This document shows, piece after piece, positions 26,301 to 63,160 of a stretch of DNA of 64,000 nucleotides. The stretch lies in the NCBI GenBank assembly GCA_026025075.1, contig JAPEUI010000005.1, positions 124,001 to 188,000 of the forward strand, given 5' to 3'. The translations under genes were made by a program, and so were the position numbers. How positions within the stretch are numbered: position 1 is the stretch's first letter; each line of letters begins with the position of its first letter. The notes under the pieces are model-generated. The model was not told where the DNA came from. It worked only from the letters and a program-made list of their open reading frames with translations, and ran no database searches. Origin of the DNA: Vezdaea acicularis (lineage: Eukaryota).

Positions 26301-29300
26301 GGGCATCTTGCAGTAGTCGGTGATGGTACTTGATAGCCATAGCAGACATCTGCAGCAACTCCATGCGAGAATGATCTACGCCAATCTGGCTTGAATCGTC
26401 TCCCGGCTCAATCATAGTAGTCTTCCAAATCTTTTGGTTGATTGTTTCTGTCATATTCCTATCCATCAGCCTAGGACTTGTTGGTGTAAGCTTCTGAGGG
26501 GGGTGCCGCATGATATCCATGGCAAGGATAGGGTTGACGAGATAATGAAAGGCGAAAGTTTTGGACTTCTGAGACACACTCGGTTTCCCATAAAGATCAA
26601 GACATCGCGTGACGATACCACGCCAATAATCTATAGAATCATTGCAGACTATGTGGTCGTAGATGTACTTAATGAAAGTATACGACGTCTTGACTTGTTC
26701 ACTCGTCCGGGCTTCGATCATCTCAAAGAGAAAATCCACATTCTGAGGCGCGTGAATGAGATATCCTGTTAATATCTCGACAAGCTGCTGTCCTGCCTGC
26801 TCTACTGCAAGTCGAAGATGTTTTTGCGTTGTATTCTTACGCAGGTTACCTTCAAGAACTTTGCCCGCACTGAACAGCTGCTGCCTCAGGTTATCCTGCG
26901 AGACTAGCCATTTACTAGTTGCCGGCTGTATGCAAATGGAGTGTACGACATGAATTGCATTGACTGTTGCTGCATTTCGGTGTTCTGGATTTGTTGGCTC
27001 CATAAATGCCTTCAAAATCTTGTCCGGGCTACTTGTAACTGTTACACGCAGCGCATTGCTTGAGTCGTCTTGAAGTATTTGAGAGAAAAACCTTCCGTAC
27101 TTCATCTCATGAAGTCTTGCGGAGAAGAAGTCCCATGTTTCTTCGGGGTAACGATTCAGGTACTTGACCAATGGCTCTCGAAAGGGGCTATAGTGCGTTC
27201 TCCGAAGCTTTTCTTCCAACTCTAGAACATTGTCTACTAGCTTCGGGAGGAATGAAATCGCTTTATCTGGCAGGAGATAGAATATGTTGAGGATAGCAGC
27301 CACTATTTTCATGCCCTGGTTTTGTTCTACAAGGTTGAAGGATATCTTTTGCAAGGCATTTGGCTCGGCAATTGTCTTCATATGGTCGAGTAACCTCCAT
27401 CCAATCTCAACTTTGAAGTAGTTGGTAAGCAGCATCAAGAGCCTTGCCAGACCGTCCAGACCGGCAACCGTTAGTCGTTTCGGATCCTGCAGGTTCATGA
27501 GAATAGGTCTCAGCCCATTTTGGAGTAGTTCTTTCGGAAGTTTGTTAGTCGTTGATAGAACTGCCTTTAATCCCAAGTTCGCAGCATCGATCACATCCGA
27601 ATATTTCGAGTAGAGGGACTTAAAGAAGACTGATATAATACGAGAGCGACTATGATTCTGAGGCGAATTCCCAAATTCAGCGAAGCTCATCGCCATCGAC
27701 AAAAGCCGAATGCATGCCACACGAAGGTTGACGATGTTGTCAGCCGTACGATATTCGATGAGTCTGTTGGCAAGAGTTTCATCCTCAGATTCGGCTAAAA
27801 CAAGGGTCTCGACCAGAAGTCGATTGAGCGGCTCGTTGAATTCCACTAGATCGTGTCCTAAGCTCAGACAAAAGGTAATCGCATCGATATAGCCTATTTG
27901 GATAGGGTGTGGTAATGCACGGAGAGGTTTATTATATATTGGACCAAGCAGACGTTCCTTGACTGGGGTCATCAAAACATAAACTTCTGTCCCTGTTACT
28001 TCGGCAATGATACTGAATGCTTTCTGTGCCGCTTCCCTTACATGTCTGTTCATATGAGCCAGCTCATAGATCAAATATCCGCAAAGGTTTAAAAGTCTTG
28101 GAACCGGCTTCCCATCTTTAACTTGGTGTTTATTGCAACGCCTTAAGAGAACCTCCAAGGTGGCCTGTGATTGTATTCTGGTCTTGGCGGGAAGGTCTTG
28201 AGGCATGTCTTTCATTACATATAGCAAAGCTCGGACGAATTCGGTTTGTCGTGAAGCCATCCATACATCTCCAAGATCTAGCTCGGTGGCGTAAATATGG
28301 ATACCGTAGCTCCCGCCCGCCTTTGTGAACCACTCTTCTTCATAGCAGCTGTGACAGAATGTTCTCGCAAGATGACCGAAGAAGGGGAGCATTGACGCCT
28401 TTTCCTTAGACCCGAATATCAAAGAGACTGATTCGTATACCGTCTTGATAGCCTGCTCAGCAGCATCTCGTACCTTCACAATATCTGAGGCGAAGCTTTC
28501 TACAATCGCATCAGCCAGTACACGACTGTCGATGAAAAGCGGTCCCTCTCCAGAGTGGACATTAAATGTCTTCCCTTCCTGTTTTAGCTGGGCTAAAGAC
28601 CGGCCAACCTCAAGCACCGTAAGATGACGGCACACTTTTGTTAGAAGAAGGCTTGCCTCTTCGCTGAGGTCTGGAATAGATACCGCGAATATGCATGCTT
28701 TCAGCAGCTTCTTAACATTATCCTGCTGATCGTCCTTTTTGACAATAGACTTCTCTCGCTCGGACTTCCCCATATAGTCAGCAGCAGAATCATACTTAGC
28801 TTCTACTAGATCGTTTGCTTGCAATCGTACGAGTTGAGCAAAATCATCGGGCAGGCTGTCGAATCCTATCGAAAGCTTCAGCTGAGCACTGATCAAGCGA
28901 AACGCCTGTTGCTTGTAGAAGCCATCCGACTTTTTCGCTGCCTGAGCCTTAGGGGCTTCCAACAGTTTGCTGATCGCAAGTTCAGTGCCGAGGGTAGCTG
29001 GAAACGGACGTTCCTTGGTTGACCCAACCAGTTTCAGGTCGATGCTGCTTCTATCATCTGCATATTGCTCGAATGAGAGAGCGGGAGGACCATTCAAGAA
29101 CTTCCGATTTCGTCCTCCGAGTTTCCCCAGGATACGCATAGTGGTATGCGAGTGAAAGTGCGTGTACGGCGCAGGTCGTAGATGTTCCCAAAGGGCCGTC
29201 ATGAGCTCATCCATTACAGGAGCCATGATTGGATCTAGATAGTCGGCCGTAAGATTGTCGACACACAGCTCTAATGTTCTAAGACCCTGGCTAACAAGAT

Positions 29301-31958
29301 CTGATCCAGCCCTTAAAGCAATGACTAAGGGTCTCATGAGATAACTCAAATGTGGCAACAGGTTGCTTAAGCGCGCAGGCACTGTCAGGCAAAGCTCAAC
29401 GTATAAATCTCTTTCCGTGGGTTTCCTAGCCGCTAGGAGTAGATTATTGAGCACTTCGAGGAGCATCTCTAATAAAGGTAAAATCTCTTTGTATAGGTGT
29501 TCAAATCTTCCCCCACCAATGCTTCTGAATAGCGAGCGTAGTAGGAAGAAATAGTTCATTGGCTCTTCCGCAGTGGTCGAGAGCTGGATCGACTTGGTAA
29601 CAATTTTCGTGACATGCGGGAGTAGTACCTGCTCATTTTGATTTGAAAACAGTGTTACAGCCATGAAGGACAGCTTGAAGAGTCGTAGTAAGATGGAAGA
29701 CTTCTCGATGTTCTTGCTTCCTACTTCATGGATCCGGTCCATGAGAAATTGTAGAAGCATGCCAGCAAAACTCGGCGATGTTGACTCGCAAGCCAAGAAA
29801 AATTGGGGTACGTGGAGTAGAGCCGTATGCTCAAACATCATATCGTACAATCTAGGGATCTCGGAATGAAACACTTCATGGAATGTTGCAGGGTCAATGC
29901 AATGAAAGATGGTCGCAAACGCTTCAAGAAGATCTTTTTCTTCTTTGCCACTATTGACCATATAGTGGTTTGCATAGAATTCGACAGGTGACGAGTAATT
30001 CGATTCTGTGGGCGGTTTTGCAAGGCTATAATATCGAAAGACATATGCTCCTTCTCGGAACAGTTTTGTAATCACTTTCACCTCCTCAGCGTTGTAACCA
30101 TACGAAACTTCCTTCCAGTTTGCAGGAGCGTTCGTGGCATCAATCGGTTGATCAACCGGATTACAAGCTTTCAGCTGGTAAAAGATATTCTTGAGTCCAT
30201 TTACTAGGTTCTTAAATAGAAATTTATTCTCAGCAACTGGATTTGCGCTTCGGTCTCGAGGATTCGACGTTTTGATGGGTACTGCCGTGAATATGTCTAT
30301 TTCATCCCAGTCAGCCTCACCATCTTTCGGAGCAAGAAAGTTTTCGGGGGCTGCATCAATAGTCTGATTTTCGTATTGCTCGGTGAGTTTTACCGCATTC
30401 GGATATTGCCGGTTCATCGCTGCAAACTTATCTCCAATGGCATCGAGGATCATTATCAGGAAATGACGCGCATCCTGCCTGTCATCTGGCTTTTCGTTTA
30501 GTTTTGCGATACAGTCCGCCATATTAAGAAGAAGCTTAGCGCTCATGGTCTGAAAACTTGTTCCAGGAAAGTCGTCATGCAAGTTCTTCGTATAAACCTC
30601 AACCGTCTTTCGTATCTGTTCTGGCTTAAGGGCGTCTCGGACGTGGTGGATTAGATCTGCCAACATGCTGTATGCTAAGGGTCTCATTGTTTCATATACG
30701 GTCAATCCATCCCCTATGAGTGTTCTCTCCTCAAGCAATGCATCAATTTTCCTTAAAAATATCTTCCGGAAATTGAAATTGATGATGTGGCGTATTGCAA
30801 CTAGCAACTCCTTCCTAGCACTTGACTTCTCTCGTGGACAATCTTGCAAAAGTCGCACAACGATATCCGGAAGAGTCGGGAGGAAATCTTGAAGTTGATG
30901 AGCATAGACTCGTAGGAGATAGGCGAGGAAGCTCATAGTCTTCACTTGCGCAGTAATAAAGTCTCCAAAGGCGACTCGGTTCTTGATCTCAGGGCTTACT
31001 CCTGCGAATACTACTCCTTCTTGCTGAGCTTTCGTGTGGGCATTTTGCTGCGGTTTGGCCTGCAGCAGCAGAACGCCCTTTATGAGTGGTACGAATAGAG
31101 ACACATTCCTCTTGACAAGAGCCCCGTGCTTTTGGAAGAGAGAGACAACTATGATTGGGCATTCGGCAAGCACCTTGAATGATTGCATCCCGGGGAGTAA
31201 TTTCCTGTTAACTTGCTGCTCGCCTCCAAGGTCGGTAGTTGTTGTGGTAGGGGAGCTCGGTCGAGGTGATTGGAAATTTGTGGCATTAGGAGTCGAGGGC
31301 AAGCCAGAAGCGCTTCCCTGGGCTGGTATATCAAAAGTATCCACGACAGCCTTCTCCATCATCTCAAACATCTCCATAATAAGATCTAAAAATGGTTGAA
31401 CTTTGTCGCCAAGTACCTTCGTTTGATTTCGTTGAAAGTCCATGATGATCTTCATTATTAGAACCGCATTATCCTCGTTCTCTTTCCGAACCAAGTCCAT
31501 CAGCTTCGCTACAACTTCCACAGCGTATGGCTCCAGAGCCTCAACGGGCTGGTGGGGAAGGCGGTGCAGGATCTCGAATATACAGTTGCGTAGCCTCTAA
31601 TGTTCACTGCGTCAGAGTACTTTCTTCGCATTATATCGACAAGTCTATCATACCTGTCTGGGGACCATGCTATTCCATTCCACCAAGCCATCTAATAGCT
31701 TCATAAAGACGGGCATAAGTTTCTTGAGAAAGACATTATAGAGTTGCCCTTGCGCCATATACTCTATGTTGTCTCGAAGATCCGTAGCAATGACAACCTT
31801 ATTTTTCAAATCTAGAACGCGGGGTGAGAATTAGTTGATATTTTGATCTTCAAAGCCACTCCATAATTGATGTTTGAAGGGTATAAGGTTGGGAACGTAC
31901 CTCCATTTGGGTCACCAAGCTTAGCCGCGTAGACATCAATGTTCCTTTCGTGAGACAT
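20314..31958 (-). CDS. TRA1: TRRAP/Tra1 PIKK pseudokinase, subunit of SAGA and NuA4
   Basis: >3700-aa ORF with HEAT repeats ([13 protein letters not shown]), FAT domain ([21 protein letters not shown]), pseudokinase region and FATC-like end ([10 protein letters not shown]); ATG 31958; introns 31812-31900, 31597-31653 and probably 20998-21051. Confidence 0.98.
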
Positions 31959-42309: not shown

Positions 42310-43315
42310 TCACCTGTCCATCCACGTCCTCCCATTCAGCCTCTCCTCCACAGGGAAGACTTCCCGTGCATACTCCTCCATGCCCCGATACCCCTGCCAG
42401 AGCTGCACCGCCTCCCCGGGTGCTTGTAGTTCAGGCCCGAAATATGGGGCGTTGTAATGTCCAAAGAGCAGTGCAATCCCTTCAAGCTGTTGGCGGTAGC
42501 CGGTAGGAATGGAAACCTTTACTTCGACATCCCGCGTCTGGACATAGCGAACGGGGCGACCCAGACCCCTGCTGAAAGCGGCGCAAACAGCCGGTGGCGT
42601 CAGGAGCTCAAAGGCAAGCGCGATACTGACGATGTTAGCCAGACTAGAGAAGGCGGAAGGGGCCAGAAGAAGCTTACCGGTGCCCATTCCACCTCCACGG
42701 GCCGTCCATGAAAAGCTGTAGAACAGCCGGTCCGACGTCGTGCTCAGCATCAAGGAAGGGAAGGGGTGTGTCTGCGTGAAATGGTGCTCTCCACTCAAAA
42801 CTGCCGTCGGCTTGTGGGTCCATGCAGAAGAGCGGATAAGGGAGGGAGGTGAAATTATTGTTGTAGATCCCGGTATAAACGAAGGTTGCGGGGAGGCCGA
42901 GTTGACGGATGTAGTTCTCCACCGTATACTTGGGAGCCCATAGAGGAAGAGCAGGCCAACCGTGCCCGTAGATAGAGTGATCGGGCATAGAGCTGTAGAT
43001 ATAGTGTTTAATGCCAGCCTTTTTGGCAGCGTTGGCAAGGGACCGCCCGACTGCGACTTCATCGCCCCAGAAGGTAGTGTTGATGAAGGCAAGCTCTGCG
43101 CCAATGAAGAGCCTGGAGACAAGCACGGGATCTTCCAACGCACCTCGAATGAGGCTAACATTTGGGAGCCCAGCCAATTCCTTTACAACTAATCCATTTT
43201 CCTCCTCTGTTCGCACTTGCGCGCGAACGTTATATCCTACCGAGGAGGCATATCGGACGACGCTCGCGGCCTGGCGGCCGGTGCCGTTGACAACGACTAT
43301 GGTTCTGTTGGGCAT
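42310..43315 (-). CDS. nmrA: Nitrogen metabolite repression regulator NmrA/NMR1, 2 coding exons
   Basis: VVNGTGRQAAS, HYIYSSMPDH, PKYTVENYIRQ, GIYNNNFTSLPYPLF, LDAEHDVGPAVLQ, YAREVFPVEE..NG.TW; intron 42626-42677. Confidence 0.93.
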
Positions 43316-44848
43316 GCGGAATGAAGTGGTACGGCTCTGGAAAGACAAGAAGAAAGGAACAGAAGTAAGTTTTGATATAAGGGGTGGTTAGCAGTAAGCC
43401 AAATAAGCTTTTTTGAAAGAATTATCTTTCGCCGATACGATTTGGCAATTGGGTTCGCGTCGAGCTCCGAGCGTCGATAGATAACCGGCGGCCGTGACAG
43501 CCGATCCGGGCTTTTCAACGCATTTGCGCGGGTTTAAACGTAAGCTGCAGCCTCTTCGTCGATATGTAAAGTTAGTCGAAAGACATTCCGGGAGCTTTGA
43601 CGCTGCCGCATTGATGATCAACCGTGGCTCGTGAAAGTTAGGAGATCGAAGGTTTGATAAGAAGCAGCTCGGAAGAGGAGCGCCAGAATGAGAGAATCAT
43701 CATCACGTCAGAGCACGCAATTACAATGACACCAGACAAAGAAGTGTGGAGGCGGCCAGATAGCTAAGCATCCAGCCATCTCGCACTGAACGGACGATGT
43801 GGAAGGTTTTGAATGGTGGCTGCGGATGAGCGGCCCCTCCGTGGTGCAACGAATCGACTCGGATATCTGCCCTACGTTTGGCGAGTCAGCCTGTCCAGAG
43901 CCGGGGACGATTCCTCATGGGCTAGTGATTGGCATCAGAGCCTTCACCTTACGTGATGGAAACTCTTAGCCAGGGTCCTCCTAGAGAACTAGATGAGAGA
44001 AACGGGAGATAGGGCAGACATTTCCTCGGGGCGGGGAGAAACGGGCTCAGAAAAATAAGAATAATGTCATGGCAATTGGAAATGTGGGGAAAACTGAGGC
44101 CTTGCTGAATAGCGTAAGGCGTATCTGTCAAACCGCTTCCACAGAGCTTCGGTGCAGTTTGCCTAACGGGAGTCGTCCCAGGGCAGAGAGTTGAGACGAT
44201 GTGTTTTCTAAAGCGCTCATTGGACGTCTTACAGGCGATGATCAATTACATCTATCGTCGTGAAAGAGTTGGCGCTCTGGCTGGATGCTTTGGTGCTCTG
44301 GCTTCGTCTTTCGAAAGCTGCATTGGGCTGAGATCTTTCGATAGGGGAAGTTGTTGTATTCACTTCGCATGGTTCAGAAGGAAATCACGTCATCTAGCCA
44401 GCGTTTGAGTGATCCGCAATCTAGTAGGAAGCAAGTACGTACAATGATTGTCTAGAGGGAAGATAACAGCTAGGCTCGGAGCTATGGTGTCGACGGCTGA
44501 ACGATAAAATGTTCGGGATGAAAGGTTGATGAAAAGGAAGAGATCGTGGTCCACGGAAGGCGGTGAGGGGCATGGTGGTAAGGATTCGGCTTCTAATGTA
44601 TGAACATTGAAACATGCCGGGAAGTATTTTCTGGCTTGCATAGACTTCTTCTCGATAGGAAGCCTGCATCATGCATTGTTTCCCTATCTTAACTATCTCA
44701 TTTCGTCAATCTAGCCTTACAGTACAAGATCTCCGAGGAACAATTCGTGACTTTGAGACCTGCACCAGCACTTGGTCATCCGAAATAGCTACTTTCTATA
44801 AGACTGACGCTCGTAACGATCGATGCGGACAGAAATAGCACAGCAAAT

Positions 44849-46773
44849 CTAATCTTTGACAGGCTCAGCTGGAAAGTGCTTGGCCGAAATCCCAGCAGCA
44901 GCCCAGACCTCGGGTTCTGATCTTGCTTTTACAGTCGCGATAGCCAGCTCGTCCGCGTTCAGATGAGCGCCCGATTCTCGAAGCAGCGAAACGTGTTCTT
45001 TCATGCCAGCGCTTGCAGCTAGGAATAGAGGGGTTCGTCCTGCGCGATTGCGCAAATGTACTGATGCGCCATGTGAGAGAAAATCTCGTAAGATCTGGAG
45101 ATTCGGCCCGGTAGCCGCCATGTGCTGGTGTCAGAAGAGTCAGCCTTTGCAAGCACATTCTCCTACTTGGAAAGGTAGCAATGGCGATAAGAAAGACACC
45201 CTGGCACAATAGAGGAAGGTCAGGTGTCGTCGGAATAAGCTGTGGGGAAACCCTGCAGCAAAAGTCCCGATCGGCTGAGAAAAAGCAACACCTTGCCGAG
45301 CAGGTACGAATTGAGATAAGACATCCAACATCATTGGAACACGATGCGACTCAATAGGATTTCAATTGAGTATCTTGCACCCTCCCTTATCGTAGACTTA
45401 CCATAGGCGTGTTTCCCGAATAGTCCGATTCGTTTAGCAGCCACTCCGATTCACCTTTCATCACAGACTTTACCTCGTCGTGGCTTCCCTTGGTGATGGC
45501 GTATCCTAAAGCGGAAAGGCTTGCTAACTTTGACGACAAGTGGCTCGCTTTCGGATGTTGGAACAGCGTCTGAGTTTGACCATTGAGCTCCCCCCGAAGA
45601 GAAATCGACATCTGTCTCTTAATATCTTCTGTTGAAAGGTTTGGCAACGCGAGCAAGTATGATAACTTAGTCAGAGCAGCTTCTGACGTCATATCTTGAC
45701 CAAAAACTACACCCGCTTTTCCAAGGGCTGTTCCTGGGGCGTATAGAGGACTGACACTGCCCACCATACATTGAGTAACATTGATGATAATGATACCCCT
45801 GATCACAGCGTTCTTTATTACTTTCGTCATAGCACCATCGGGACCTTCTGGCGCATTACCTGCCCCAAATGTCTCCAAGACAAGACCCTTAAGGTCATCC
45901 ATTTTCAATATTCTATCCACCATCTCAGGTTTAATCCCTGGAAAAATTCGAAGACAAGCTACATGAGCAGTATCCAGGTTCGTCTGGATTGAGAATGGGT
46001 GAATATTCGTCGATCTAAAAATGAGCGGCCACTTAACATCAGTATTCACAGAAGTGATCGTGGCAAGAGGCGGATGATTTGGTGAGGAGAAAGCATCAAA
46101 GTCGCTAGCAGAAACCTTTGTCGTCCGGTTACCTCTAAATAACTTGTAATTGAAGAACAGACAAACTTCTGGAATCATGAAGTGCCCTGCAACGACTAGC
46201 GATCCTAAAAGATTATCCGTGGCATCATTCTGAAGTTCAAGCATGGGAGCTTGTGACCCTGTCAATACAACTGGTTTCCCTAGATTTTGTAACATGAAGC
46301 TCAGTGCTGAGCAAGTATATGCAAGACTATCTGTCCCATGGAGGACTATGAATCCATCGAATAGCTGATAGTTTCGATAGATTGCTTCGGCGATCTCGGT
46401 CCAACCTTTTGCATCGATTGAGCTACTGTCAAGCAGTTGGTCAAACTCTAAGACAGCATAGCGTACGCGTCTTTCGTAGGTACTGATAGGCGTTCGTAAA
46501 CTTGGGAGACTCCTCCTGAACCCACCCTTGTCAATGACATCGATATCTGCCGGGCTCGAACTATCGTTGAAGGAGGGCCTAGGTTCCAGTCCAGCCTTTA
46601 AGAATCCCCTTGCCTGTGGTAGTCTAAGTAAGAGTCTAATGCTTAGTACACCAGATTTTGGTACTTACTGGGATGAACCCATTGGGTGAACGTCTCATAC
46701 AGATCGTGCCACCAGTCATGATGATGAGGACCCGGGACTCCGGCACAACTATTTCATCCTCGACTTTGTGCAT
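44849..46773 (-). CDS. Type I L-asparaginase/60-kDa lysophospholipase with C-terminal ankyrin repeats, 3 exons
   Basis: IIMTGGTICM, LLDSSS, VLHGTDSLAY, LGKPVVLTGSQ, RGNRTTK, ETFGAGN, DMTSEAALTKL, ankyrin GNTPMH and GRTPLF; introns 46614-46668 and 45125-45401. Confidence 0.93.
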
Positions 46774-47829: not shown

Positions 47830-48822
47830 ACCCCTGTTTCTAGTCCACGGATTTGCATGCTGTGACCGGGATACTTTCTAGCAACGGTGATATTCGTACA
47901 TCAAATTTCAGAAGCTAAGAAGTCAATAGATCTTTACGTGGGAAACGTTGCTTATAACTGTTTGGAAGAACCTCGTGAAGGTTTGGCTATTGCAGCTAAT
48001 ATTGGGGTGCCACTATGTCTATCCGTCCGGTCCATTAATCACCTAAAGCCGTGTTGACGCCTCGCAACTACCAGCTGCCCTGGTGTTAGTGATGTCCGAG
48101 CCTACTTTTTGCTGTGCACGTATTGTCAGATCCAGTGTTTCTTATCGTCCTAGCACCTCGGAATTTCACCGGTCAGCCTTGAAATGATGTAGTCATATAT
48201 TTCCAGTATCAAGCATTATAGTCGCCTAATTCTCCGCTCTTGCTCTGTTGAATTAGGATATTTGTGCTGGGAATTGGGGTACTTGGTTCCCATTGCCGGT
48301 GCTCTGCCTCCTTTTCGACCAATTCATACGTTTCGCTCGATCTACTCAAGAGGTTTTATAAAATCTTCTTGTCCATTGAGCTTTATTCTCTATGCCTAAG
48401 TGAAGCCACGATAACATAATGTTGTGGGGCGACCTTTGGGTCTCCTGGAAACAGGCCATTGCCGGCAGGATTACCTTGATATCTGAGTAGTTTTACACGC
48501 TGAAGACCTCCATTGTTCCAGATTTATATGGGATCTTCTTCATCATAGGGTCGTCGATATTTTGAGTCCCATTAAGACCTTCCCTAGATAGCAAAGTAAC
48601 AAGTAATCGGTGGTCTGTGCCCAATACGAGGTAATTCTGGAACCCTGTGACGCTTGCGCGATTAACAGAAGCAGGAGGAACCAAAAAAAACCTCGCACTG
48701 AGTCTACTTCATCTACAGCTACCTCTGAACTGAAAAGGCCTCGCTTGGGGATATATAAAAGTCCCAACATTCAAAGGGATTGCTCAACATCTCGAGAGTC
48801 CGGTTGCTCCATAATCTTTGCC

Positions 48823-49284
48823 ATGGCTGGCTTAATACGCTTCTCCACACTAAAAGTTCTAGTTCTCTTCATTTCTATCATGGCAGCTCCACTTTATGCT
48901 CGCCAGCTTCGGTCTACTCCTAATCCCCGCATCGACCCATATTGCCCAGGATACGCGACGGCTGTAGAAGGCGCAGAAGGCGTCAAGGGCTACAGGGAGG
49001 AAGTGGAGATCACATTCAAAGAGCTCTGCATTCGACGTTTCAGATCCGGACGTTACACCCTTCAAGTCGACTGCTCGTGTCGCAATGACGGCGTAATGCA
49101 ATGCAAGCATGGAGACGGTTCTCAATTGTGGATGGCAGAATTGTGCGCGAGGGTGTGTGATTGTCCACTGCCACCAGGTGTTCGAAACGATGAAAAACAT
49201 GTACAACTACTCCAAACAAAGAATATGGCAGGTAGTCGGGGTACCGATCTGAGAAGATTGTTGGAAGGTAGTGGCGGAGATTGA
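48823..49284 (+). CDS. Small secreted cysteine-rich protein, 153 aa, 8 Cys, no family recognised
   Basis: TATATAAAA at about 48752; good start context GCCATGG; signal peptide-like MAGLIRFSTLKVLVLFISIMAAPLYA; C-x27-C-x14-CxC-x7-C-x13-C-x3-CxC. Confidence 0.75.
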   Translation: MAGLIRFSTLKVLVLFISIMAAPLYARQLRSTPNPRIDPYCPGYATAVEGAEGVKGYREEVEITFKELCIRRFRSGRYTLQVDCSCRNDGVMQCKHGDGSQLWMAELCARVCDCPLPPGVRNDEKHVQLLQTKNMAGSRGTDLRRLLEGSGGD

Positions 49285-50092
49285 TGGAAATCGCCTGTAG
49301 CGATGGCTTAGCGGTCTCAACAAGGAATTCCGCTCTTGTGAACGCACTTTGGACACTCCATTGCCTAGGGGAATACTGACCTTACTCACTCACTCAAACC
49401 GGACAATCAAGACCAATTAACTCGTTATCTTTCATTCGTAAGCCCGTGAGCCACGCCCCTCTAGTCGGGTGTCTTGGTTTTACAGTCGGTGGTCACAAGT
49501 AAACGGACACTTTCAACACTGTGTATATCCACCACAAGAAGCTGAAACCGTTTATGATCGTGCAGGCTTACTTTCAAGCAACATGTCTACAAATTCTGCA
49601 TCAGTCATATTCAAAGAAGATTGAATTGTGCGACTCAATCACGTTTCCAGAGCTGTTTTGCCTCTCTTTGCTTCTCCAATGCTTGGATCCGCCACCCATA
49701 GGCCCCTCTTCAGCGGCGATTAAAATCCGGGGAATGGAGAGGCCATTTCATGAACTTGAAATTATGTCTAAAACCTAAGCTTTGATTATCTTTGCGTCGT
49801 GAATTCTTGCTTTATCCTCTGTAGTCATTGAGGGCAGGGCTGCAAGGGTGTTCGTTTACTTATGACCACCGAATGTAGCACAGGCCGCATTCCAACTGCA
49901 AAGGCTAAACCGATCTGGTGGAGCAGCCTATAGTTGCCTCCTCTCCGTGATTGGTAGTGCTTGGCAACAATGATGATCATAACCCTGGGTGCATTTACTT
50001 TCTCTGTGGTGTGAACGCCCTCTGCCCATGATGTCTATTCTGGTCCATCACCTAAATGCTGCACAATCCGTACCATCAACCAATATATCCAC

Positions 50093-52441
50093 ATGGAGTC
50101 AGGACAAAGGCCACGCCGAGCTGTAAGCGTACCTCCTATCTTCAGCGGAGATAATTGGTTTATGATTGATGACTGACCAGACTTTTCTAAGTGCCTCAAT
50201 TGTTACCAGAAGAAGGTCAAGTGTGACTTGTCGGCACAGGACTTGAGTTGCTCGCGATGTGCCGAGCAAAAGCTAGAATGTCTTCTGCCGGATGGCTCTC
50301 AGACAACGCCTCGGCAATCCATGAGGTAAATGGCACGAACTCAACTAAATAACATAGCGCATACGCTTAATAGCTTTTAGAGAAACACTGGAAGAATTGA
50401 GTACTCGTGTGCGTAGCCTAGAGGGTGCCGCTTCATCCTCCATCAACTTCCGGACTGCCGTTCGTGCTGCTTCTTCCCCTAAAAGCACTTCAGGTAGACC
50501 GCTCTTACTAGGCGAATACGCCCAAAGCCCAGTCTCAAGTCATCAAAGAGACCAACGCCACTTGGCCGTTCAGTCCGCTTCTGTAGTTACGACATACCGA
50601 GGTGAGACTTCGCCATGGACGAAGCTTGTGAATGGCACAACGGAGTCTTCCGATTCGACATCCCTAGGTACATTTCACCAAACTGCGGTGGAGATATCGA
50701 ACGAGGAACACACTACGATATTACCTTTTCTTTCTTTAAAGGTTGACCTGCTGAGAGACTTTCCACACCTGAGTGAGGACATAGTATTTGCCTACGTTCA
50801 GGATTACGCAGTGACTGCACCGTACCCGATTGTATATTGGCCATACGTTCGTGACGTTGCCAAGCAAGGGCTACAAAGAAAGGAATATGCGAGATGGGGC
50901 CAGCTTGTCTGCCTATTAATGGTGAGTCCAGAAAGCCATCTGAAAATACAGATTGAGAGTGAAGGAAACTAAAAGACGATCGCAAAGTACATGGCATTTG
51001 GCTGCGCCCATTCAAACTCTGTAGAGTCAAGCATTTCTCCTGTAGCAGAGTCGGGTATGTACTTTCGAAAGGCATGGGCCGCTTTGCCGCATCTGTTGAT
51101 GGACCATGACCTCTGGGCTTTGAAGGGTATTGTTTTGATTGTCAGTGCGCCCCTAAGACCCAACTTAACTTTCTGTCGCCGTTTTTGGATAGTGATGCGG
51201 ACGTCTGCTCTCAACAAGATCCAATACTCCTCCAGCAGTCAATCACCAATTGATGTGGCGCTAACTACAGCGCCCATTTCAGGTCCATTATCTACAAGCT
51301 AGTTCACAACCAGAGCCATGTTGGTCACTTCTTGGAGCAGCTACTAGGATGGCAATCTCCCTGGGCTTTCATCAAAAACGCTTGGTCAACAGTCAGTACA
51401 CTGTCACAGAGCAGGAAGAAGGCACACGCTCGTGGTGGCTCTGCTTTGTCATGGAAAAGTATGAAATTAGAGCACTGATGAGATGTTCTCACTGACCTCC
51501 CCAGGACGTTCTCTGTCATATTTGGCCGACCTGGCGCTATTCAAAATCATATGGAAGTTGATCGACCAAAGCCATTTTACAATGACCAGACACCTCCTGG
51601 CAGGATCGAAGACGACCTCGAGGCGGTCGAATTCTTCAATGATATGATAGACCTTGCGTATACTCGCGATAACCTTTTAGCGCAGCCTCCTTTGGAGTAT
51701 ACACGCTCTACGTCTGTTTCTGAGCTTTTGAGAGGGACTCTGCGAACCGGAGACCAACTGGACTACGAGCCGTTCTCGATCAACTCTTTGCGAGGGACAA
51801 TAAGTGATCTTTCGCATTTCAATGCCGTTCAAATAATTGATGGTCATCTGCAAGCTACACCTGTGAGGTCAAAGGAGAGCGTGCTTGCAGCGCGTGCGAC
51901 GCTACAGATCCTTACGGAGACGCAGAGCGCCGGCAAAACTATGTGTTTGTGGTAAGTATTGCTTTCGGTCTGAGCTCAACATGCTGATAGCTACAGGATG
52001 TGGCTATATTACGCTTTCACGAGTGCAGTGGTCCTTTTCCTAAACACGATCGTTAACCCGCTTCACCCTGATGCAGCCCTCGACCTTGCCATGATATCTG
52101 ACTTGGAAAGCCTTGCAGCAAACCTAGCAACGATCTCTGAGGGTTCTAAGCGGATTTTAGCGATTTGTAGAGGCATGAACAAAGTTGCCTTCGAGCTTAT
52201 GAAAGCTGCTGCCAAAAGGAAAGCAAAGAAGAGAAGTGCTGGCGTCGATAGAGAGGATGGGAGGCAGAAGATAAGGCGCGGTAAAGAGGGGGTTCCTGAG
52301 ACCTTCAGCGGTCTATCAGCACGGACTGATGTTGCCACTACTACGGAAGATTCGGCGGGTCAAAATATGCTTGCCTCCGTACCAGGGAACTTTGCATGGG
52401 GTGAATGGGATCAATGGCTTGAAGATGTTGCATTTGAGTGA
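50093..52441 (+). CDS. Zn(II)2Cys6 transcription factor with fungal-specific middle homology domain, 7 exons
   Basis: Spliced RA-CLNCYQKKVKCDLSAQDLSCSRCAEQKLEC, coiled coil LEELSTRVRSLE, CWSLLGAATRMAISLGFH, RSWWLCFVMEK..SVIFGRP, acidic/aromatic tail; introns 50123-50191, about 50326-50380, 50922-about 50987, 51141-51282, about 51459-51504, 51952-51996. Confidence 0.9.
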
Positions 52442-52884
52442 GTTGTGTAACATATGCAATGGGAAGGTAGCCACTACTAGCGCCACATAACAGTCGGACA
52501 CTGCAAATGCTTCTGTTGTCTGTTCGGAGCGGTCGCGTCCCGAATTGATTGAAGTGGAATCTTCTTGGTCTACTCATCACTAAATATAGGGAATACGCTT
52601 ACCATATTAGAAAATACCTGTATTCTGGAGGGAACAAAATCGCCCCTTTCTCCACAGAGCGCGCTCGCCGGGGTCAGCATTTCCACAAGATGAAGATCTT
52701 CTAACCTATGACTATGCTTAGCAAGATCACCAAAGGAACTCAGTTTTCCAAAGCTTTTGATATATGTATTGCGAACTATGCTATCTTTTTCTTCGGCTTT
52801 TATCCCCCCCCTGTTGCGCATCGTTCTAACCACTAAATGCATTGCAACCACTACGGTGCTTGCTCAGAGTTACAACTTGCCAGT

Positions 52885-53777
52885 CTAGGCCAGCAGGGGA
52901 AACGCAATCTGGCCGGCCTCAGTGGACCAGTCCTTGATCAATTCCGTGATAACTGCGTTAGTCGACGTCACCGGGATTCCAGCTTGCTTTAAGCGCTCCC
53001 AGGATACCTGCTCCGCCAGCTGGGTTGGACTACCACCCGCGTCGAGAACACACTGCAATTACCACTCAGATATATACCAGTCAGGACAAAAGTTGAGCAC
53101 TCACCTTGATATGGTACCCTTCTGCCTGCATTGAAAGAGCAGGGGGGACGAGGCAGACGTCAGTTGTCACGCCAGCAACAATCAAGTGCTTGCGACCAGC
53201 AGCTCTAACTGCCTTCTCGAAGTTTGGGTCAGTGAAAGCATTCACTACGCCAAGTCTCTTAGTTCTCTTCGCATATGCCTCTGGCGCTGCCTCTTGGATG
53301 ACGTCCAAGAGCAATCCTTGTACATTGTCCTCCCTTGGATTAGCTGTTAGCTAACTGGCCACTTTAACGAATTGAAATTTTCTGACACTTCTGGGTACAG
53401 GATACTTTCAGAAGTGTGGATTTGCAGTCTGGTCTAAGATTATTTGGTCGAAGAGTGCCTTACATGGAGGAAGTCAATACAAGGGGCATCTTCAGCTTCG
53501 TTGCGAAGGTGGCAAGGATCTTGACATTCTTTTCGAGCAGGGCAGCATCGATAGAGTGAACCCAGCCACAAGTACCCTTTTGGTGGTCTATAAGTACAAC
53601 GGCGGTATCTTCGATGTTGAAAGCCTTCGTGAAGTGGTCTTTGTCAGTGATAGCGGCCATAGTTGGGGCTCGAGGCTTGGTGTTTCCTGGCGGAGGCTGA
53701 GACGAGCTACTTGAAGAGAAAAATCGGGATAGTCTAGTAAGTGAATTGGAGATCTTAGTACTCAAAGTTTTGAACAT
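52885..53777 (-). CDS. YcaC-like cysteine hydrolase (isochorismatase superfamily), 3 exons; two in-frame ATGs (53777 and 53660)
   Basis: LIDHQ (catalytic Asp), KRLGVVNAF (Arg), AGVTTDVC (nucleophile Cys), VLDAGGS, EL..DW; introns 53334-53463 and 53053-53104. Confidence 0.92.
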
Positions 53778-53835
53778 TCCTGGACATGCATTTTCACTTT
53801 TACGGTGCTGTTCCTTATCACTAATTATTAGAGCA

Positions 53836-53900
53836 CTCGGCGCCGAGCTCGGTCCACAGCATTGGTCAATTGGTACTAAGCGAAGGCCGAAGCGGGACCG
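53836..53900. promoter_or_regulatory. Overlapping CGG-triplet palindromes (candidate Zn2Cys6 binding sites) in the hydrolase/SNG1 divergent promoter
   Basis: CTCGGCGCCGAG 53836-53847 (CGG-N2-CCG) overlaps CCGAGCTCGG 53843-53852 (CCG-N4-CGG); a further CCG-N3-CGG at about 53887. Confidence 0.55.
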
Positions 53901-54074
53901 ACGTGCCGTCCTGCAAGATTGCCGATGAATGGCATTAACAATTCGATCTACCCTGGAGCTGTCCAGTACAGCAATCGCATTTTTCTTTTCCCTCACAATT
54001 TGTTTACTTTGCAACTATTTTTACGGACAAATTTCTGCGTGACGTTGCTCCTGTGCTCGTGACTCTGCACCACA

Positions 54075-55523
54075 ATGGGTGAAGAGGAAACCACAATGGC
54101 TGGCGCAAAGGAATCGGGAGGTGCTCTCACGCCTCCGCCCGACCCAGTGCCAACTCCAGCTCCAGCTCGCGATCTCTATAGTCTATCCTTCTGGGACAGT
54201 GAATTCCGCGAGACTCGCAAGGTTCTAGGGAAGACCCTTGCGCTTCCACTTCTCTACACCTCGCTACTCATGTGGGCTTGCTTAAGCTTGTATTGGGGGT
54301 CACTACTCTCGAACAATAGTCTTGGAAAGCTTCAGGTATACGCTGTGGACCTTGACGATGGCTTCCTAGGAAAGCAGATCATCAGCGGTATTCAAGAAGC
54401 CATTGCGACCACGCCCAATCACCTCAATTGGCGGTTTGATACTTCAATCACGAGTGATGCTTTGTCGAGAGGCTTGCTCACGGATCAGCGAGCTTGGGGC
54501 GTTGTGCAGGGTGAGCTCTACCCTTGAGTACTGTGCAAGAGCTCTGACCTTACCAAGACCAGTATCTCCCAATGCTTCATCATCTCTGGACAATGCCCTC
54601 CAACACGGCGTAGCTTCCTACAACCCCCTATCGGCTGTCACCATCTACTACCTCTCCGCACGTAACCAGATCACGACAAGTTCCAAGGTCGTTCCAGCAA
54701 TTCTTGCAGCAGTCAATCCGCTCCTTACCAAAGCGAGCATCGCCCATACGGCGGCGTTCCTCGGACAGAACGCTGGGAACGAAAGCATCCTCAGGACTGC
54801 TGGCGCGTGTCCGCAATGCCTTGCGTCCCCCTTCGCAGCTTCCCAAGAGGACCTCCTCGCCTTCGACTCTCCCACGGCGATGGGTACCACCATGGTCGGT
54901 CTAATCTTCCTCCTGACCTTCACCTTCAGCATCTTCCAGCTCCTCCACGCGAACGCCCTCATCATCGGGGCAAAGCTTAACATCCGTTCCGCCTTGTTCT
55001 TTCGAACTTTCAATGCGCTTCTTGCATACTTCTTTCTATCACTATGGTATTCTCTGATCAACCTAGCTTTCAAGGTGCCTGTGACTCGCCATTATGGCGG
55101 TGGAGGGTTTCTACTGTTTTGGCTTTTGAATTTCTGCACGATGACTTCTGGTAAGGCTCCCCATTCGCCGTGTTTACCAGCATCTCTTAACCTCCTACAG
55201 TCGGTCTTCCCATGGAATCTATCTTCACCTTCCTTGGCGTCCAGTGGGCTGGCTACTTCCTGCCCTTCTGGATCATCGTCAACGTCGCCGGTTCATTCAC
55301 CTCGTTCGAGCTCATGCCTGGCTTTTATAAGTACGGCTACGCCTTTCCGTTCTACCACGCGATCGAGGGGACGCGTACGATTGTCTTTGGGACGAAGAAC
55401 CACCTAGGAAGGAACTTTGGTGTTCTGATTGCTTGGACGGTGCTGGGGTTGATCGGCATGTTTGTACTCACAGTGTGGCAGCTGAAAAGGAATTTGAGGA
55501 AGGGGACGCATGCTCTGCCCTGA
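54075..55523 (+). CDS. SNG1: SNG1-family (DUF3533, nitrosoguanidine-resistance-like) multi-pass membrane protein, 3 exons
   Basis: SLYWGSL, VYAVDLD, AWG.V.VSPNAS, ARNQ, FLPFWIIVNV, PGFYKYGYAFPFYHAIEG.RTIVFGTKNHLGRNFGVLIAW; introns about 54511-54561 and 55151-55200. The symbol denotes family membership, not proven orthology. Confidence 0.85.
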
Positions 55524-56955
55524 AACTGTTGGTTTGGTGTGCTCCATGCTGCGAGACCACGCTAGATAGTCGTAAAGAAAAGTGGTTGGCCGTACTATAG
55601 AGTATCTATGGTTGAAAAACAATTGCTGAGATCGCATCTTGCACTGGCACGATAAATGGAGAAGTAGTATTCTACTCTCAAGGACTTCAGAGCCGGCACC
55701 ATATAAAGCATGCCCCGAGAAAGAACTGAAGATTATTGCTTTCTGAACACTGCCTGACTTTGGTTTGGGATATCCTGCTCTCCCCCCCTCCCTCCCATTA
55801 AGACGCCACGGAAGGAAGGTGATTGCTGCCTCCAACTGGAAGTGCGCCACTCCGCAACCCCTTGACGACTTTATGGGCTCCGCTCATCGACGTGCGAGGC
55901 TCTTAGGCGCAGCAGTTCGAGAATCTGTACGTCGTCCACGCTAGACGACCTTATGCGCCGAGCGAACAAGACGCGCGCAGCCGTGGACTCGTCGACCAAC
56001 GGATCCAAAGGCTCATGGATGCCTTCTTGGACATACTAGATAGTAGGCTGGATTATAAGGTTGGAATTCAGAGTAAAAGTGACAAGCCGAATGAGTCATT
56101 TGGGGGGTTTACCCATCAATAATCGCGGGTTGATTGGCATGCCCTTTATGTGGTTGGCCCCCTCATCTTGCAGATACTCAACGAGTGATTAGACGCCAAC
56201 TTCTTTTATGGCCTTGAATACCTTCTAGAGGCTATTCCGACGTGCCAGAGTCCGTGAAGAAGCTATATTTGACACAAATAGGGAATAGACAGAGTCTACC
56301 TTTTCGGCGATATCAAAGTGACTGGTACATTACCAAGTCTTACTATCGGCGGACCATTGGGCACTGAGAATCCATTCGGCGAAACATCTAAAACCTCAGA
56401 CGTAAGACCCCTCCCTAGCCAAGCCCCACCACCAAGAAATTCGATCACCAGCGTTCACGCCCAGTGAAGGGGAGCTTGTCCAAAAGCTATGAAAATGATG
56501 CAATGACCAAATTCCCCGGGATTGCTGTGCCCCATGCGCGCATATTTCTGGTGGACGGGCGATTGTTCAGGTACCGATCCGGAAGGAAGCCGCTCAGGGC
56601 AGGGACAGAACAGGTATGAAAAACAGCGCGGAATATTAGAGGACGATCGTGGATGCGAGAGGAATGGTTCCCAGATGCGCTATATCTCTACGCGAAGAAG
56701 CTGCGCGCGGGGTGCTCTGAGAGCGGGGTGTGATGTTATTGAGGAGCCTGTGAGCTAATCATTGATGTTAGGATTCATTGAGAGAGAAGATGTCATAGAT
56801 GAGATGGAGGTTCAGAAGAGGCCGTTTAAAAGAGCGCAAGGGCGCTGCTTTGGTTTCTCGAACTCTTTGAAATTTCCGAAACATTCTCTTCCTTGCCCAT
56901 TTCTCCCATATACGTGTCCCAGTCCTTCCTATTGCCCTCGCCAGACATTGAAAAT

Positions 56956-60573: not shown

Positions 60574-62046
60574 CTAAACAACAGGTTTCTCGTTGACGGG
60601 ATGGATGCCCTCGCCGGTGCCGGAGGGCAGTTCGGTCTTGCCGTTGCTGCTGCCGGCGGGGTCCTTGCCGACGAGGATGCCAGACATGCCCTCCTCGCCG
60701 TCGCCGTTGAGGTTATGGCGCATCTTGCGATCGATATCGATGAGGTTGCGGTTATAGTGGGCGAAGGTATAGGGTTCCTCGCCGTGGACGGCATAGTCGC
60801 CGATGAGGAGGTCGGCCTCGGACATGCGCAGGGGGACGCGGCAGACGTACTTGATGAAGCACATGATGAGGGAGGTCCAGAGGATGTTCCAGCCGATGAT
60901 GAAGAGGGCGCCGACGATCTGGAGCCAGACCTGGCGGCCGTTGCCGTCGATGGCGCCGCCGGGGTTGGTGAGGCCGAAGGCGGCGCAGCCCTCGGTCGTG
61001 GCGAAGAGGCCGGTGCCGAAGCCGCCGACGAGCGCGCCCACGAAATGCGTGTGGAAGACGTCGAGGGTGTCGTCGACGACCTTGAAGAGCGTGAGCTTGC
61101 GCCCGGCGATGTTCATGCTGAGCCAGGGGATCGTGCCGGAGCCGACGCCGAGGATGATGGCGCCCCAGCCGGCGACGACACCAGCGGCGGGGGTGATGGC
61201 GACGAGGCCGGTGATCATGCCCTGGATGGCGCCGATGACGGACGGCCGGCGGTAGTAGATCAGATCGCAGGTGACCCAGGTGAGGGAGCTCATGGCGGTT
61301 GCGATGTTCGTGTTGAGCACGGCGACGCCGGCGTCGGGACTGGCCGTGTACGGATCACCTCCGTTGAAACCGTTCCAGCCGATCCACAGGATGCCCGCGC
61401 CCACCAACATCAGCAGGATGTTGTTCGGCTGGTTGTCCTTGAGGTCCTCCTCGATCCGGGGCCCGATCCACCAGGCGCCGACGAAGCCGGCGGTCCCCGA
61501 CGACAAGTGAATGACATATCCTCCCGAGTAGTCGATGACGCCCTTCTTGAAGAGGAAGCCACCGCCCCAGATGCTGTACGCGCCGATGCAGTACGAGAAG
61601 GTGAGCCAGAGCGGCACGAAGATCATCCAGGCGTAGAAGTTCATGCGGCAGAGGTAGGAGCCGGCGGTGAGGATGAGGGTGATGGCGGCGAAGACGAACT
61701 GGAAGTAGACCATGGTCGCCTGGGGGAAGGCCTGCATGACGCCGGCGGAGGGGAGGTTGGATTGCTGCAGTTGATAACTCATGCCCAGCGCCGTGCCGGG
61801 TCGACCGGCGAAGGGGAGCATGTACTCGCCGAAGCCGACCTTGTAGCCCCAGATGACCCAGCAGATGAGGACCATGGCGAAGGCGTAGAAGGCCATGAAG
61901 GCCGAGTTGATGGCCCACTTGTGCTTGACCCAGCCGGCGTAGAGGACGACGAGGCCGGGCACACTTTGCAGCGCGACCAACGAGGCCGCGGTAAGCTGCC
62001 AGGCGTTGTCGCCATTGTCGAGCCAGTCTGGTTTTACAGCAGACAT
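60574..62046 (-). CDS. Ammonium transporter of the MEP-alpha/plant AMT2-like clade, intronless, 490 aa
   Basis: WLDNGDNAWQLTAASLVALQSVPGLVVLYAG.VK.KWAINSAFM, FQFVFAAIT, IDYSGGYVIHLSSG and DDTLDVFHTH (twin His), WNGFNGG, LRMSE..LLIGD.AVHGEE.Y; the ORF-track start at 62202 is TTG, and the first ATG is 62046. Confidence 0.96.
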   Translation of the reverse strand: MSAVKPDWLDNGDNAWQLTAASLVALQSVPGLVVLYAGWVKHKWAINSAFMAFYAFAMVLICWVIWGYKVGFGEYMLPFAGRPGTALGMSYQLQQSNLPSAGVMQAFPQATMVYFQFVFAAITLILTAGSYLCRMNFYAWMIFVPLWLTFSYCIGAYSIWGGGFLFKKGVIDYSGGYVIHLSSGTAGFVGAWWIGPRIEEDLKDNQPNNILLMLVGAGILWIGWNGFNGGDPYTASPDAGVAVLNTNIATAMSSLTWVTCDLIYYRRPSVIGAIQGMITGLVAITPAAGVVAGWGAIILGVGSGTIPWLSMNIAGRKLTLFKVVDDTLDVFHTHFVGALVGGFGTGLFATTEGCAAFGLTNPGGAIDGNGRQVWLQIVGALFIIGWNILWTSLIMCFIKYVCRVPLRMSEADLLIGDYAVHGEEPYTFAHYNRNLIDIDRKMRHNLNGDGEEGMSGILVGKDPAGSSNGKTELPSGTGEGIHPVNEKPVV

Positions 62047-62129
62047 GATGGATGAGAGGTCGTCCGAGTCGTCGTCGGAGAATTGGAGAGCTTTCAGAGG
62101 ACGTACGCGTCGAGAGGGATGCGACAGCT

Positions 62130-63160
62130 CCGTGTTATATACCAGCCCGGGATTCCCGAGGCCATGTCCAGGGCGCCGGACCTCGATTGGGCCAGGCTTC
62201 AAACCCTTATCTTCTGCAAGCGGGATCTATTATTGACGATCATTACGAGCGGAAGGGGGGGGGGGGAGGCCGGGGGTGGGGAAATTTGTGGGCCGCAGAA
62301 AAAGAAGCAAAGATGGGGTTGAGGATGAAGGAAAAGGCGCGGGCGCGCTGGGCGAGCGACGGTCGTGAAGCTTATCTTCATCTCGCTATACGACCTTGAT
62401 GGATGGGGGCCAATGGGAGAGGATGCCACGGGGGCCAGCGCAACATCGGGCCTAGTTCTTTTTTCGACAGAAGCAAAAGACGGAGGGGAGGTCGCAGTGG
62501 TGCGCGGTGGTCGCAGTGGTGAGCAGCAGATGGGCAGAGCTTGTCGAAGCTTGAGCGTCGTCGCGTAAGGCTGGGCCCCTGCTGGTCCGTCCGCCGGTGC
62601 TGGGTCGCGTCCGCTCCGATGGAAGCCTCTCCTTGGCGCGGGACCCCCCTTCATGCGGTTGTAGATAAGAAGCTCGGCTCGGCCAATCAGCGCCGCCTTA
62701 TACTCTCCAATTTCGATGCTGCAACGCCGTTTTGCTTTGCCCGTCTCGATCGCCGGCCTGATTGGACCTCGAAATCATCGAGCGCGAACTGTCAGACAGC
62801 GCAAGGTCCAGAACGCGTCAGGTCGCTACACATTTCCGCTTCAAGGCCGGTTCGCGCTGCGATCCCGCGCAACGGCCAGCAGATGGAGGGGGACCGCCGC
62901 GCAGGGGAGCGGCAGCCCCCCCATTCGCCGCCCCCCCCCCCCCATCAGGAAAAAAAGCATCTGAAAATTTTTCGAGAAGCCGTGAAAATCTTCGACTCGA
63001 TGCTCCCGTTCGCGAGCTGACGCATCCGTAGACGTCCGATGGATGGCGGGGGGGGCTTCTCTCGTCGTGCCAGAGCGGAGGTCGTTTCATCGTCGAAGCT
63101 CGAGCGAAGCTACGCGGATGCAGGCCCTTCGCTTATCTTTCGGCCGCGCGGGCCAATGGG
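62130..63160 (-). promoter_or_regulatory. Ammonium transporter promoter: TATA box, four AGATAAG GATA sites and neighbouring CCAAT boxes
   Basis: TATATAA at about 62135-62141 (minus); AGATAAG/CTTATCT at 62206, 62371, 62663, 63132; CCAAT/ATTGG at 62186, 62410, 62683, 63153. Confidence 0.65.

Follow-up and report, generated by a model that had tools for sequence, protein, structure and literature searches.

We analysed a 64-kb stretch of the Vezdaea acicularis genome (64,000 nucleotides of contig JAPEUI010000005.1, hereafter the window), with a focus on three neighbouring genes at 50093-55523 that encode a Zn2Cys6 transcription factor (TF), a YcaC-like isochorismatase-fold cysteine hydrolase and a membrane protein of the DUF3533/SNG1 family. 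On balance, we lean towards reading these genes as a functional, co-regulated module of regulator, YcaC-type hydrolase and DUF3533 protein that is conserved in Pezizomycotina. Each of the three genes is intact and can be assigned to a recognizable family, and the hydrolase has its catalytic residues in place. Fungi of three classes have the hydrolase and DUF3533 genes side by side, a gene of the same TF family neighbours the pair in a second lineage, and the promoter between the two genes contains a conserved motif.

Gene models and protein families of the trio

Gene models for the region were built by hand from the window sequence (Table 1). They yielded three intact, intron-bearing genes whose Pfam matches place them in the families named by an earlier note, which had been made from the sequence alone. 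The models also bear out the gene order described there, in which the TF and hydrolase genes converge and the hydrolase and DUF3533 genes diverge head-to-head. The same note gave the promoter between the divergent genes as ~300 bp, whereas the real distance from ATG to ATG is 414 bp and a value of 297 bp is obtained only from an in-frame ATG at 53777; because relatives do not have the extension that begins at this upstream ATG, the shorter figure was not upheld. A long form of the hydrolase starting at 53777 (236 amino acids) was rejected as the main form, as homologues are 192-197 amino acids long and the related metagenomic locus L003 contains in-frame stops upstream. The 39 residues that the upstream ATG would add to the hydrolase (53661-53777, minus strand) are basic, Ser-rich and free of acidic residues, resembling a targeting peptide.

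Judged by its sequence, the hydrolase is a member of the YcaC subfamily with the predicted catalytic residues present. Its second exon matched PF00857 (8.6e-9), and the full model fits the 192-197-residue homologues through both splice junctions. The top structures for a profile of close homologues were YcaC of E. coli (1yac, 5e-47) and of P. aeruginosa (4wgf, 1.8e-44), and other isochorismatase-fold entries trailed by a wide margin. Members of this subfamily form octamers of two stacked tetramers. In exon alignments to 1yac and 4wgf, residues D25, S65, R92 and C126 of the window protein fall on YcaC positions 19, 59, 84 and 118, and three of them (D25, R92 and C126) are invariant across eight homologues; the protein as a whole is 81% identical to its L003 counterpart. 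In the available excerpts of the YcaC literature, Cys118 is the nucleophile, Asp19 its activator, Arg84 a salt-bridge partner and Ser59 a ligand-binding residue, while Trp176 reaches into the active site of the adjacent subunit (PMC4519933). A candidate counterpart of Trp176 seems to be kept in the motif 'KDW' of the window protein. These excerpts assign neither a function nor a substrate to the subfamily (PMC4519933).

All three exons of the membrane protein gene matched PF12051 (1.1e-5, 3.1e-32 and 1.7e-26, the first of which is under the Pfam cut-off when scored alone), together covering profile positions 3-95, 99-290 and 299-379 of 380. Two full-length homologues matched the same profile at 5.9e-76 (P0025) and 3.2e-79 (P0028), and the closest named relative is from Lepraria neglecta (66-68% identity). 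An AlphaFold2 (AF2) model of P0028, with a predicted local distance difference test score (pLDDT) of 77.8, consists of an N-terminal helix at 36-71, an alpha/beta domain at 80-237 and a C-terminal bundle of helices at 243-437. Foldseek searches with this model returned five matches at E<=1e-3, all to ABCH-9C, followed by ABCG1/2/25 and then, at rank 40, by the ABC-2 extracellular domain 3cni; template modelling (TM) scores were only ~0.3. These matches agree with the listing of DUF3533 in the Pfam ABC-2 clan, as given in the available text of the source (PMC9408558). No ABC_tran or other ATPase domain was found among the scanned open reading frames (ORFs) of the window. From the model of its homologue, the DUF3533 protein looks like an ABC-2-type permease that has no nucleotide-binding domain.

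The translation of the TF gene contains the arrangement CX2CX6CX8CX2CX6C (CLNC-YQKKVK-C-DLSAQDLS-C-SR-C-AEQKLE-C), and single exons matched Zn_clus (1.8e-6) and Fungal_trans (2.2e-7). The protein thus combines the CX2CX6CX5-12CX2CX6-8C motif with the fungal-specific TF middle domain, as expected of a Gal4-type factor. The model is collinear with a 478-residue homologue (P0173) over residues 173-644 at 39% identity, and three of the four exon junctions in this range are seamless; the sole irregularity is at the junction of exons 3 and 4, where the alignment has a gap of 4 residues. When 1.84 billion representatives were searched with the C-terminal exon, 32 relatives were found at E<=1e-3, a number that includes the window's own fragment, and 27 at 1e-10.

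Conservation of the pair, the neighbouring TF and a promoter motif

The hydrolase and DUF3533 genes are linked in fungi of three classes (Lecanoromycete-like, Leotiomycete-like and Dothideomycete). In the Dothideomycete Recurvomyces mirabilis, the hydrolase LTR86_007341 (P0013, 72% identity) and the DUF3533 protein LTR86_007340 (P0031, 46% identity) have consecutive locus tags, and both lie on one contig of 638,761 nt. A metagenome scan with a close hydrolase homologue recovered eight loci, four of which are fungal (with introns and a G+C content (GC) of 42-46%) and four bacteria-like (intronless, GC 60-62%). All three fungal loci that reach far enough upstream (L002, L003 and L004) have the same head-to-head arrangement of a DUF3533 gene and the hydrolase, with 409-411 bp between them compared to 414 bp in the window; the remaining locus, L001, is too short upstream to show this gene. 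L001-L003 share one sequence type, from which L004 differs little, and we counted the four as one lineage. Window and L003 also have intron positions in common, namely hydrolase introns 1 and 2 and both DUF3533 introns of the window. Finally, a contig of run X6, from a relative ~92% identical to the window, is collinear with 49876-55608 and includes the whole trio, with 477 letter differences and 40 gaps over 5.7 kb. Sequencing runs that contain the trio region were all of DNA (moss and soil metagenomes and one named organism), and none of RNA was found for 50000-55600.

We placed these sequences in a DUF3533 tree of 25 proteins, comprising the window protein, the L003 protein and 23 of 38 matches (those of at least 300 amino acids; 15 shorter ones were dropped). 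The window protein grouped with Lepraria, Thelocarpon and Xylographa (Lecanoromycetes) and the L003 protein stood beside Hyaloscypha variabilis (Leotiomycetes), with Pleosporales and R. mirabilis separate from both and basidiomycetes outside.

Two side observations concern the relatives themselves. P0013, the protein of LTR86_007341, diverges from all its relatives exactly at the three intron sites of L003 (after SSM, HIK and LIK), and the public model of this gene is probably mis-spliced or reads through introns at conserved positions. In the run X6 relative, the 738 nt that lie 3' of the DUF3533 gene in the window (55608-56347) are swapped for 650 other letters, so that the collinear block has its 3' border here.

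A regulator of the same family is also found near the pair in the second lineage. At its end, the L003 contig contains the 3'-terminal 123 codons of a TF gene, arranged tail-to-tail with DUF3533, and the encoded fragment is 34-38% identical to the window TF (38% over 130 residues). Because this fragment matches 29 of the 32 relatives of the window's C-terminal TF exon, a narrow TF family is represented beside the pair in both lineages. The TF gene faces the 3' end of the hydrolase gene in the window and the 3' end of the DUF3533 gene in L003. From the gene orders, the pair was inverted as a unit while the three genes stayed together. The flanks on the other side differ completely, with 2EXR and HET genes in L003 compared to fasciclin, asparaginase and ammonium-transporter genes in the window.

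Dimers of Zn2Cys6 proteins bind inverted CGG repeats; to our knowledge, the CGG-N2-CCG spacing cannot be assigned to a characterised factor. The earlier note had reported overlapping CGG palindromes in the promoter, and both TCGGCGCCGA and CCGAGCTCGG are indeed present, with the core CGGCGCCGAG conserved in the relatives. The window and L003 promoters are otherwise unalignable, yet both contain CGGCGCCGAG, at 178 nt from the hydrolase ATG in the window and at 154 nt in L003. Each promoter also has a second CGG-N2-CCG site, which in L003 is CGGGGCCG and lies 64 nt from CGGCGCCG. Among 1000 dinucleotide-preserving shuffles of the L003 promoter, CGGCGCCG was present in 5, and a word of at least 10 nt common to the two promoters within a 30-nt offset occurred in 23. 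Across the 64-kb window, CGGCGCCG was found three times compared to a shuffle mean of 0.88 (7 of 100 shuffles reached three). Of the CGG-N2-CCG sites, the bidirectional promoter holds 2 of 11 in the window (64 kb) and 2 of 3 in L003 (13 kb). A full-text literature search for CGGCGCCG as a binuclear-factor site found nothing relevant.

Table 1. Positions of the trio, its exons and intergenic regions, promoter sites and nearby genes in the window
Feature	Position	Strand	Details
TF gene (Zn2Cys6)	50093..52441	+	7 exons, 645 amino acids, Zn_clus and Fungal_trans
TF exons	50093-50122, 50192-50325, 50381-50921, 50976-51140, 51283-51458, 51505-51951, 51997-52441	+	0 internal stops
Spacer between the convergent TF and hydrolase 3' ends	52442..52884	.	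443 bp, stop codon to stop codon
Hydrolase gene (YcaC-like, isochorismatase-fold cysteine hydrolase)	52885..53660	-	3 exons, 197 amino acids, PF00857
Hydrolase exons	53660-53464, 53333-53105, 53052-52885	-	
Bidirectional promoter common to hydrolase and DUF3533 genes	53661..54074	.	414 bp, ATG to ATG
Overlapping palindromes TCGGCGCCGA (53837-53846) and CCGAGCTCGG (53843-53852)	53837..53852	.	
Core CGGCGCCGAG	53838-53847	.	kept in L002-L004
Second CGG-N2-CCG site CGGGACCG	53893..53900	.	55 nt from the first
DUF3533/SNG1-family membrane protein gene	54075..55523	+	3 exons, 448 amino acids, PF12051
DUF3533 exons	54075-54510, 54563-55150, 55201-55523	+	
NmrA-like gene	42313-43387	-	within 10 kb of the trio
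Asparaginase gene	44868-46664	-	within 10 kb of the trio
Ammonium-transporter gene	60577-62226	-	within 10 kb of the trio

Proposed mechanism and competing explanations

If the trio works as a module, its action would run from binding of the TF to the motif, through co-induction of the pair, to transport in one direction or the other and cleavage of a substrate. A dimer of the TF would bind the predicted CGG-N2-CCG palindromes in the ~410-bp common promoter, and a small molecule would cause it to turn on both divergent genes together. The membrane protein may then move this molecule or its product across the plasma membrane, or exclude the molecule, and the presumably cytosolic hydrolase would cut an amide- or ester-type bond via a thioester intermediate on Cys126. 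A stronger version, which we put forward as a tentative possibility, is that the hydrolase and the DUF3533 protein, ABC-2-like but lacking an ATPase, are the two parts of an obligate system, with a Zn2Cys6 sensor of its own and a CGG-N2-CCG switch, for the uptake or exclusion and the cleavage of small amide or ester xenobiotics of a single class. If true, this would provide the first physiological role for YcaC and put SNG1-type drug resistance on a biochemical footing. The earlier note had proposed a small nitrogen-rich toxin as the substrate, which is a guess, and nothing here points to such a toxin in particular.

Several observations weigh against a module. Adjacency alone could be synteny inherited without a common function, and the number of independent lineages is small (in effect three, to which one close relative is added); beyond that close relative, linkage of the TF amounts to a single contig end (L003). 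For Lepraria, Thelocarpon, Xylographa and Pleosporales, no hydrolase orthologue was found among the 120 best hydrolase matches, and the DUF3533 protein seems often to occur without the hydrolase, a weak inference because the Hyaloscypha hydrolase is missing among the named matches too. In bacteria-like loci, DUF3533 was beside the hydrolase in 0 of 4, and in all three with enough flank the hydrolase is preceded by Abhydrolase_3 and Abhydrolase_1 genes. In the promoter, the second palindrome, CCGAGCTCGG, is not kept in the relatives. A word of at least 10 nt common to the two promoters at any position appeared in 146 of the 1000 L003 shuffles and is thus not rare, so that the motif evidence rests on a palindrome flagged beforehand and not on word length alone. 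The region upstream of the TF gene (49000-50092) contains no CGGNNCCG (CGG-N2-CCG) site, and the idea that the trio is self-regulated is accordingly without support. Instead of a role in transport, the available excerpts on yeast Sng1 describe a link to sphingolipid and TORC2 signalling (PMC6723945).

The alternative that survives best, though we regard it as unlikely, holds that the hydrolase and DUF3533 genes are truly co-regulated while the TF is a bystander that serves other genes, the pair being under a factor encoded elsewhere. Such an arrangement would account for the difference between the two lineages in which side of the pair the TF occupies and for the TF's conservation (34-38%) falling far under that of the hydrolase (81%), and it is in line with the single contig end and the absence of a CGG-N2-CCG site upstream of the TF gene. 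However, with 32 relatives among 1.84 billion representatives the TF family is tiny, and chance is unlikely to have placed a member beside the pair in two classes. The conserved element, moreover, is an inverted CGG repeat, a type of site that Zn2Cys6 dimers bind.

More doubtful still is the view that the trio is ancestral microsynteny retained without functional coupling, the common CGG word being due to chance or to a site for a general factor. The small number of lineages (about three) and the DUF3533 orthologues apparently without a hydrolase in several named genomes would fit this explanation, as would the promoter statistics, in that a common 10-mer at any position is frequent in shuffles and CGGNNCCG shows no window-wide enrichment (11 observed compared to 13.5 expected). 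Nonetheless, the pair has been kept over three class-level lineages while the flanking genes differ completely, it was inverted as a unit and is still beside the TF, and the length of its spacer is maintained. The palindrome that had been singled out in advance is found again at a comparable position, which the shuffles reproduced infrequently both for the word itself and for a 10-mer within the 30-nt offset.

The remaining alternative concerns the origin of the hydrolase. Fungal hydrolases form a small group that is 72-81% identical to the window protein, and the next-best of 5469 matches are bacterial proteins of 189 amino acids with 50-58% identity. The eight fungal hydrolases formed one clade (Shimodaira-Hasegawa-like approximate likelihood ratio test (SH-aLRT) support of 90) in a quick 41-row tree, where they stood beside the main bacterial clade (89) and were not nested within it; the 33 non-fungal rows were 12 chosen matches, 18 taken randomly from the other listed matches and 3 metagenome loci. 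These data fit an old single fungal origin of the hydrolase, possibly by transfer, and not a recent movement of a cassette. We find it improbable, and the weakest of the explanations, that the trio is a bacterial-type detoxification cassette of recent acquisition that spread among fungi en bloc through horizontal transfer: the bacterial affinity of the hydrolase beyond its small fungal clade and the patchy distribution in bacteria and fungi of the highly conserved YcaC subfamily, for which the available excerpts propose horizontal transfer (PMC4519933), speak for it, but the DUF3533 tree follows the fungal classes with basidiomycetes outside, the fungal hydrolases are not nested among bacterial ones, intron positions are common to lineages, none of the four bacteria-like loci has a DUF3533 neighbour and the window locus sits amid ordinary chromosomal genes, which together leave at most a one-time, ancient acquisition limited to the hydrolase. 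Co-transfer of the pair from bacteria was rejected, as no DUF3533 match was present in the four bacteria-like loci.

The bacteria-like loci have an organization of their own. The order Abhydrolase_3, Abhydrolase_1 and YcaC-like hydrolase was found at 2558-4535 of L005, 4092-7755 of L006 and 5887-8656 of L007, an array that resembles a conserved hydrolase operon. These contigs often add a zinc alcohol dehydrogenase, and L007 carries anthrone-oxygenase-like and cupin genes downstream.

Genomic surroundings and comparison with known systems

A housekeeping block occupies 12-42 kb of the window and encodes an FGAR amidotransferase, syntaxin, NAP, Tra1, PP2A-B56, TFIIIC Tau95, Yju2 and a TPR/APC subunit. 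Beyond it lie the NmrA-like and asparaginase genes and then 3.4 kb in which a single unassigned ORF is found; the trio comes next, ahead of a fasciclin gene and the ammonium-transporter gene. The earlier note had called the stretch gene-sparse, but the region is only mildly gene-poor and an ordinary chromosomal site. The nitrogen-related neighbours (NmrA-like, asparaginase and ammonium transporter) were not seen beside the pair in L003, and for this reason a link to nitrogen metabolism through these neighbours was not used as evidence.

Two features of these surroundings stand apart from the trio. The unassigned ORF (48607-49281, plus strand) has no Pfam match, is Cys-rich and has a hydrophobic start resembling a signal peptide from an internal Met, and it may encode a small secreted protein; near it, the run X6 relative shows several skips and joints over 48951-49876, indicating that the region is variable. 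Within the housekeeping block, Tra1 is encoded by a single uninterrupted ORF of 3760 codons (20317-31596, minus strand) with matches to Tra1_central, Tra1_ring, FAT, PI3_PI4_kinase and FATC, and is unusually intron-free.

A conserved pair with a dedicated regulator and a candidate site would give experiments a point of access that is missing for either family by itself. The inducer of the trio should point to the substrate, and overexpression of the regulator should turn on both genes. The value of the system would lie in discovering functions for two widespread unassigned families, not in a new principle.

Among known proteins, YcaC of E. coli and P. aeruginosa (1yac, 4wgf/4wh0) is the nearest to the window hydrolase: both are single domains of ~200 amino acids, the YcaC structures are the best solved relatives, and all four active-site residues correspond. 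Unlike YcaC, the window hydrolase is encoded by a fungal gene with two introns, is ~45-54% identical to bacterial relatives and is paired with a DUF3533 protein and a Zn2Cys6 TF, whereas its bacteria-like homologues lie behind two alpha/beta-hydrolase genes.

For the membrane protein, the likeness to Sng1 of Saccharomyces cerevisiae rests on the family, with PF12051 spanning the whole window protein. Overexpression of SNG1 in yeast confers resistance to nitrosoguanidine and 6-azauracil. In the available excerpts, yeast Sng1 is an integral protein of the plasma membrane with Nce102 as an interaction partner and a connection to TORC2-Ypk signalling (PMC6723945). It is these drug-resistance phenotypes and the Nce102/TORC2-Ypk link by which Sng1 is known, and not a pairing with a hydrolase; the DUF3533 subfamily of the window, in contrast, is confined to filamentous ascomycetes and has basidiomycetes as its outgroups.

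Full-text literature searches, in which part of the papers were judged by title or abstract, found no work joining DUF3533 with an isochorismatase-fold enzyme and no described cluster of this composition, in agreement with the earlier note. The general layout is familiar from pathway-specific clusters of fungi, such as those for proline, quinate, purine and nicotinate utilisation, which combine a Zn2Cys6 regulator with enzyme and transporter genes and use bidirectional promoters. The trio resembles these clusters in having a TF gene beside its presumed targets, a divergent pair with a short promoter containing inverted CGG triplets, and clustering that is kept across taxa despite local rearrangement. 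It differs from them in comprising only three genes and in that its enzyme and membrane protein come from families with no assigned biochemical function. The gene composition is new, whereas the type of mini-cluster, with a regulator, an enzyme and a membrane protein, is ordinary for fungi.

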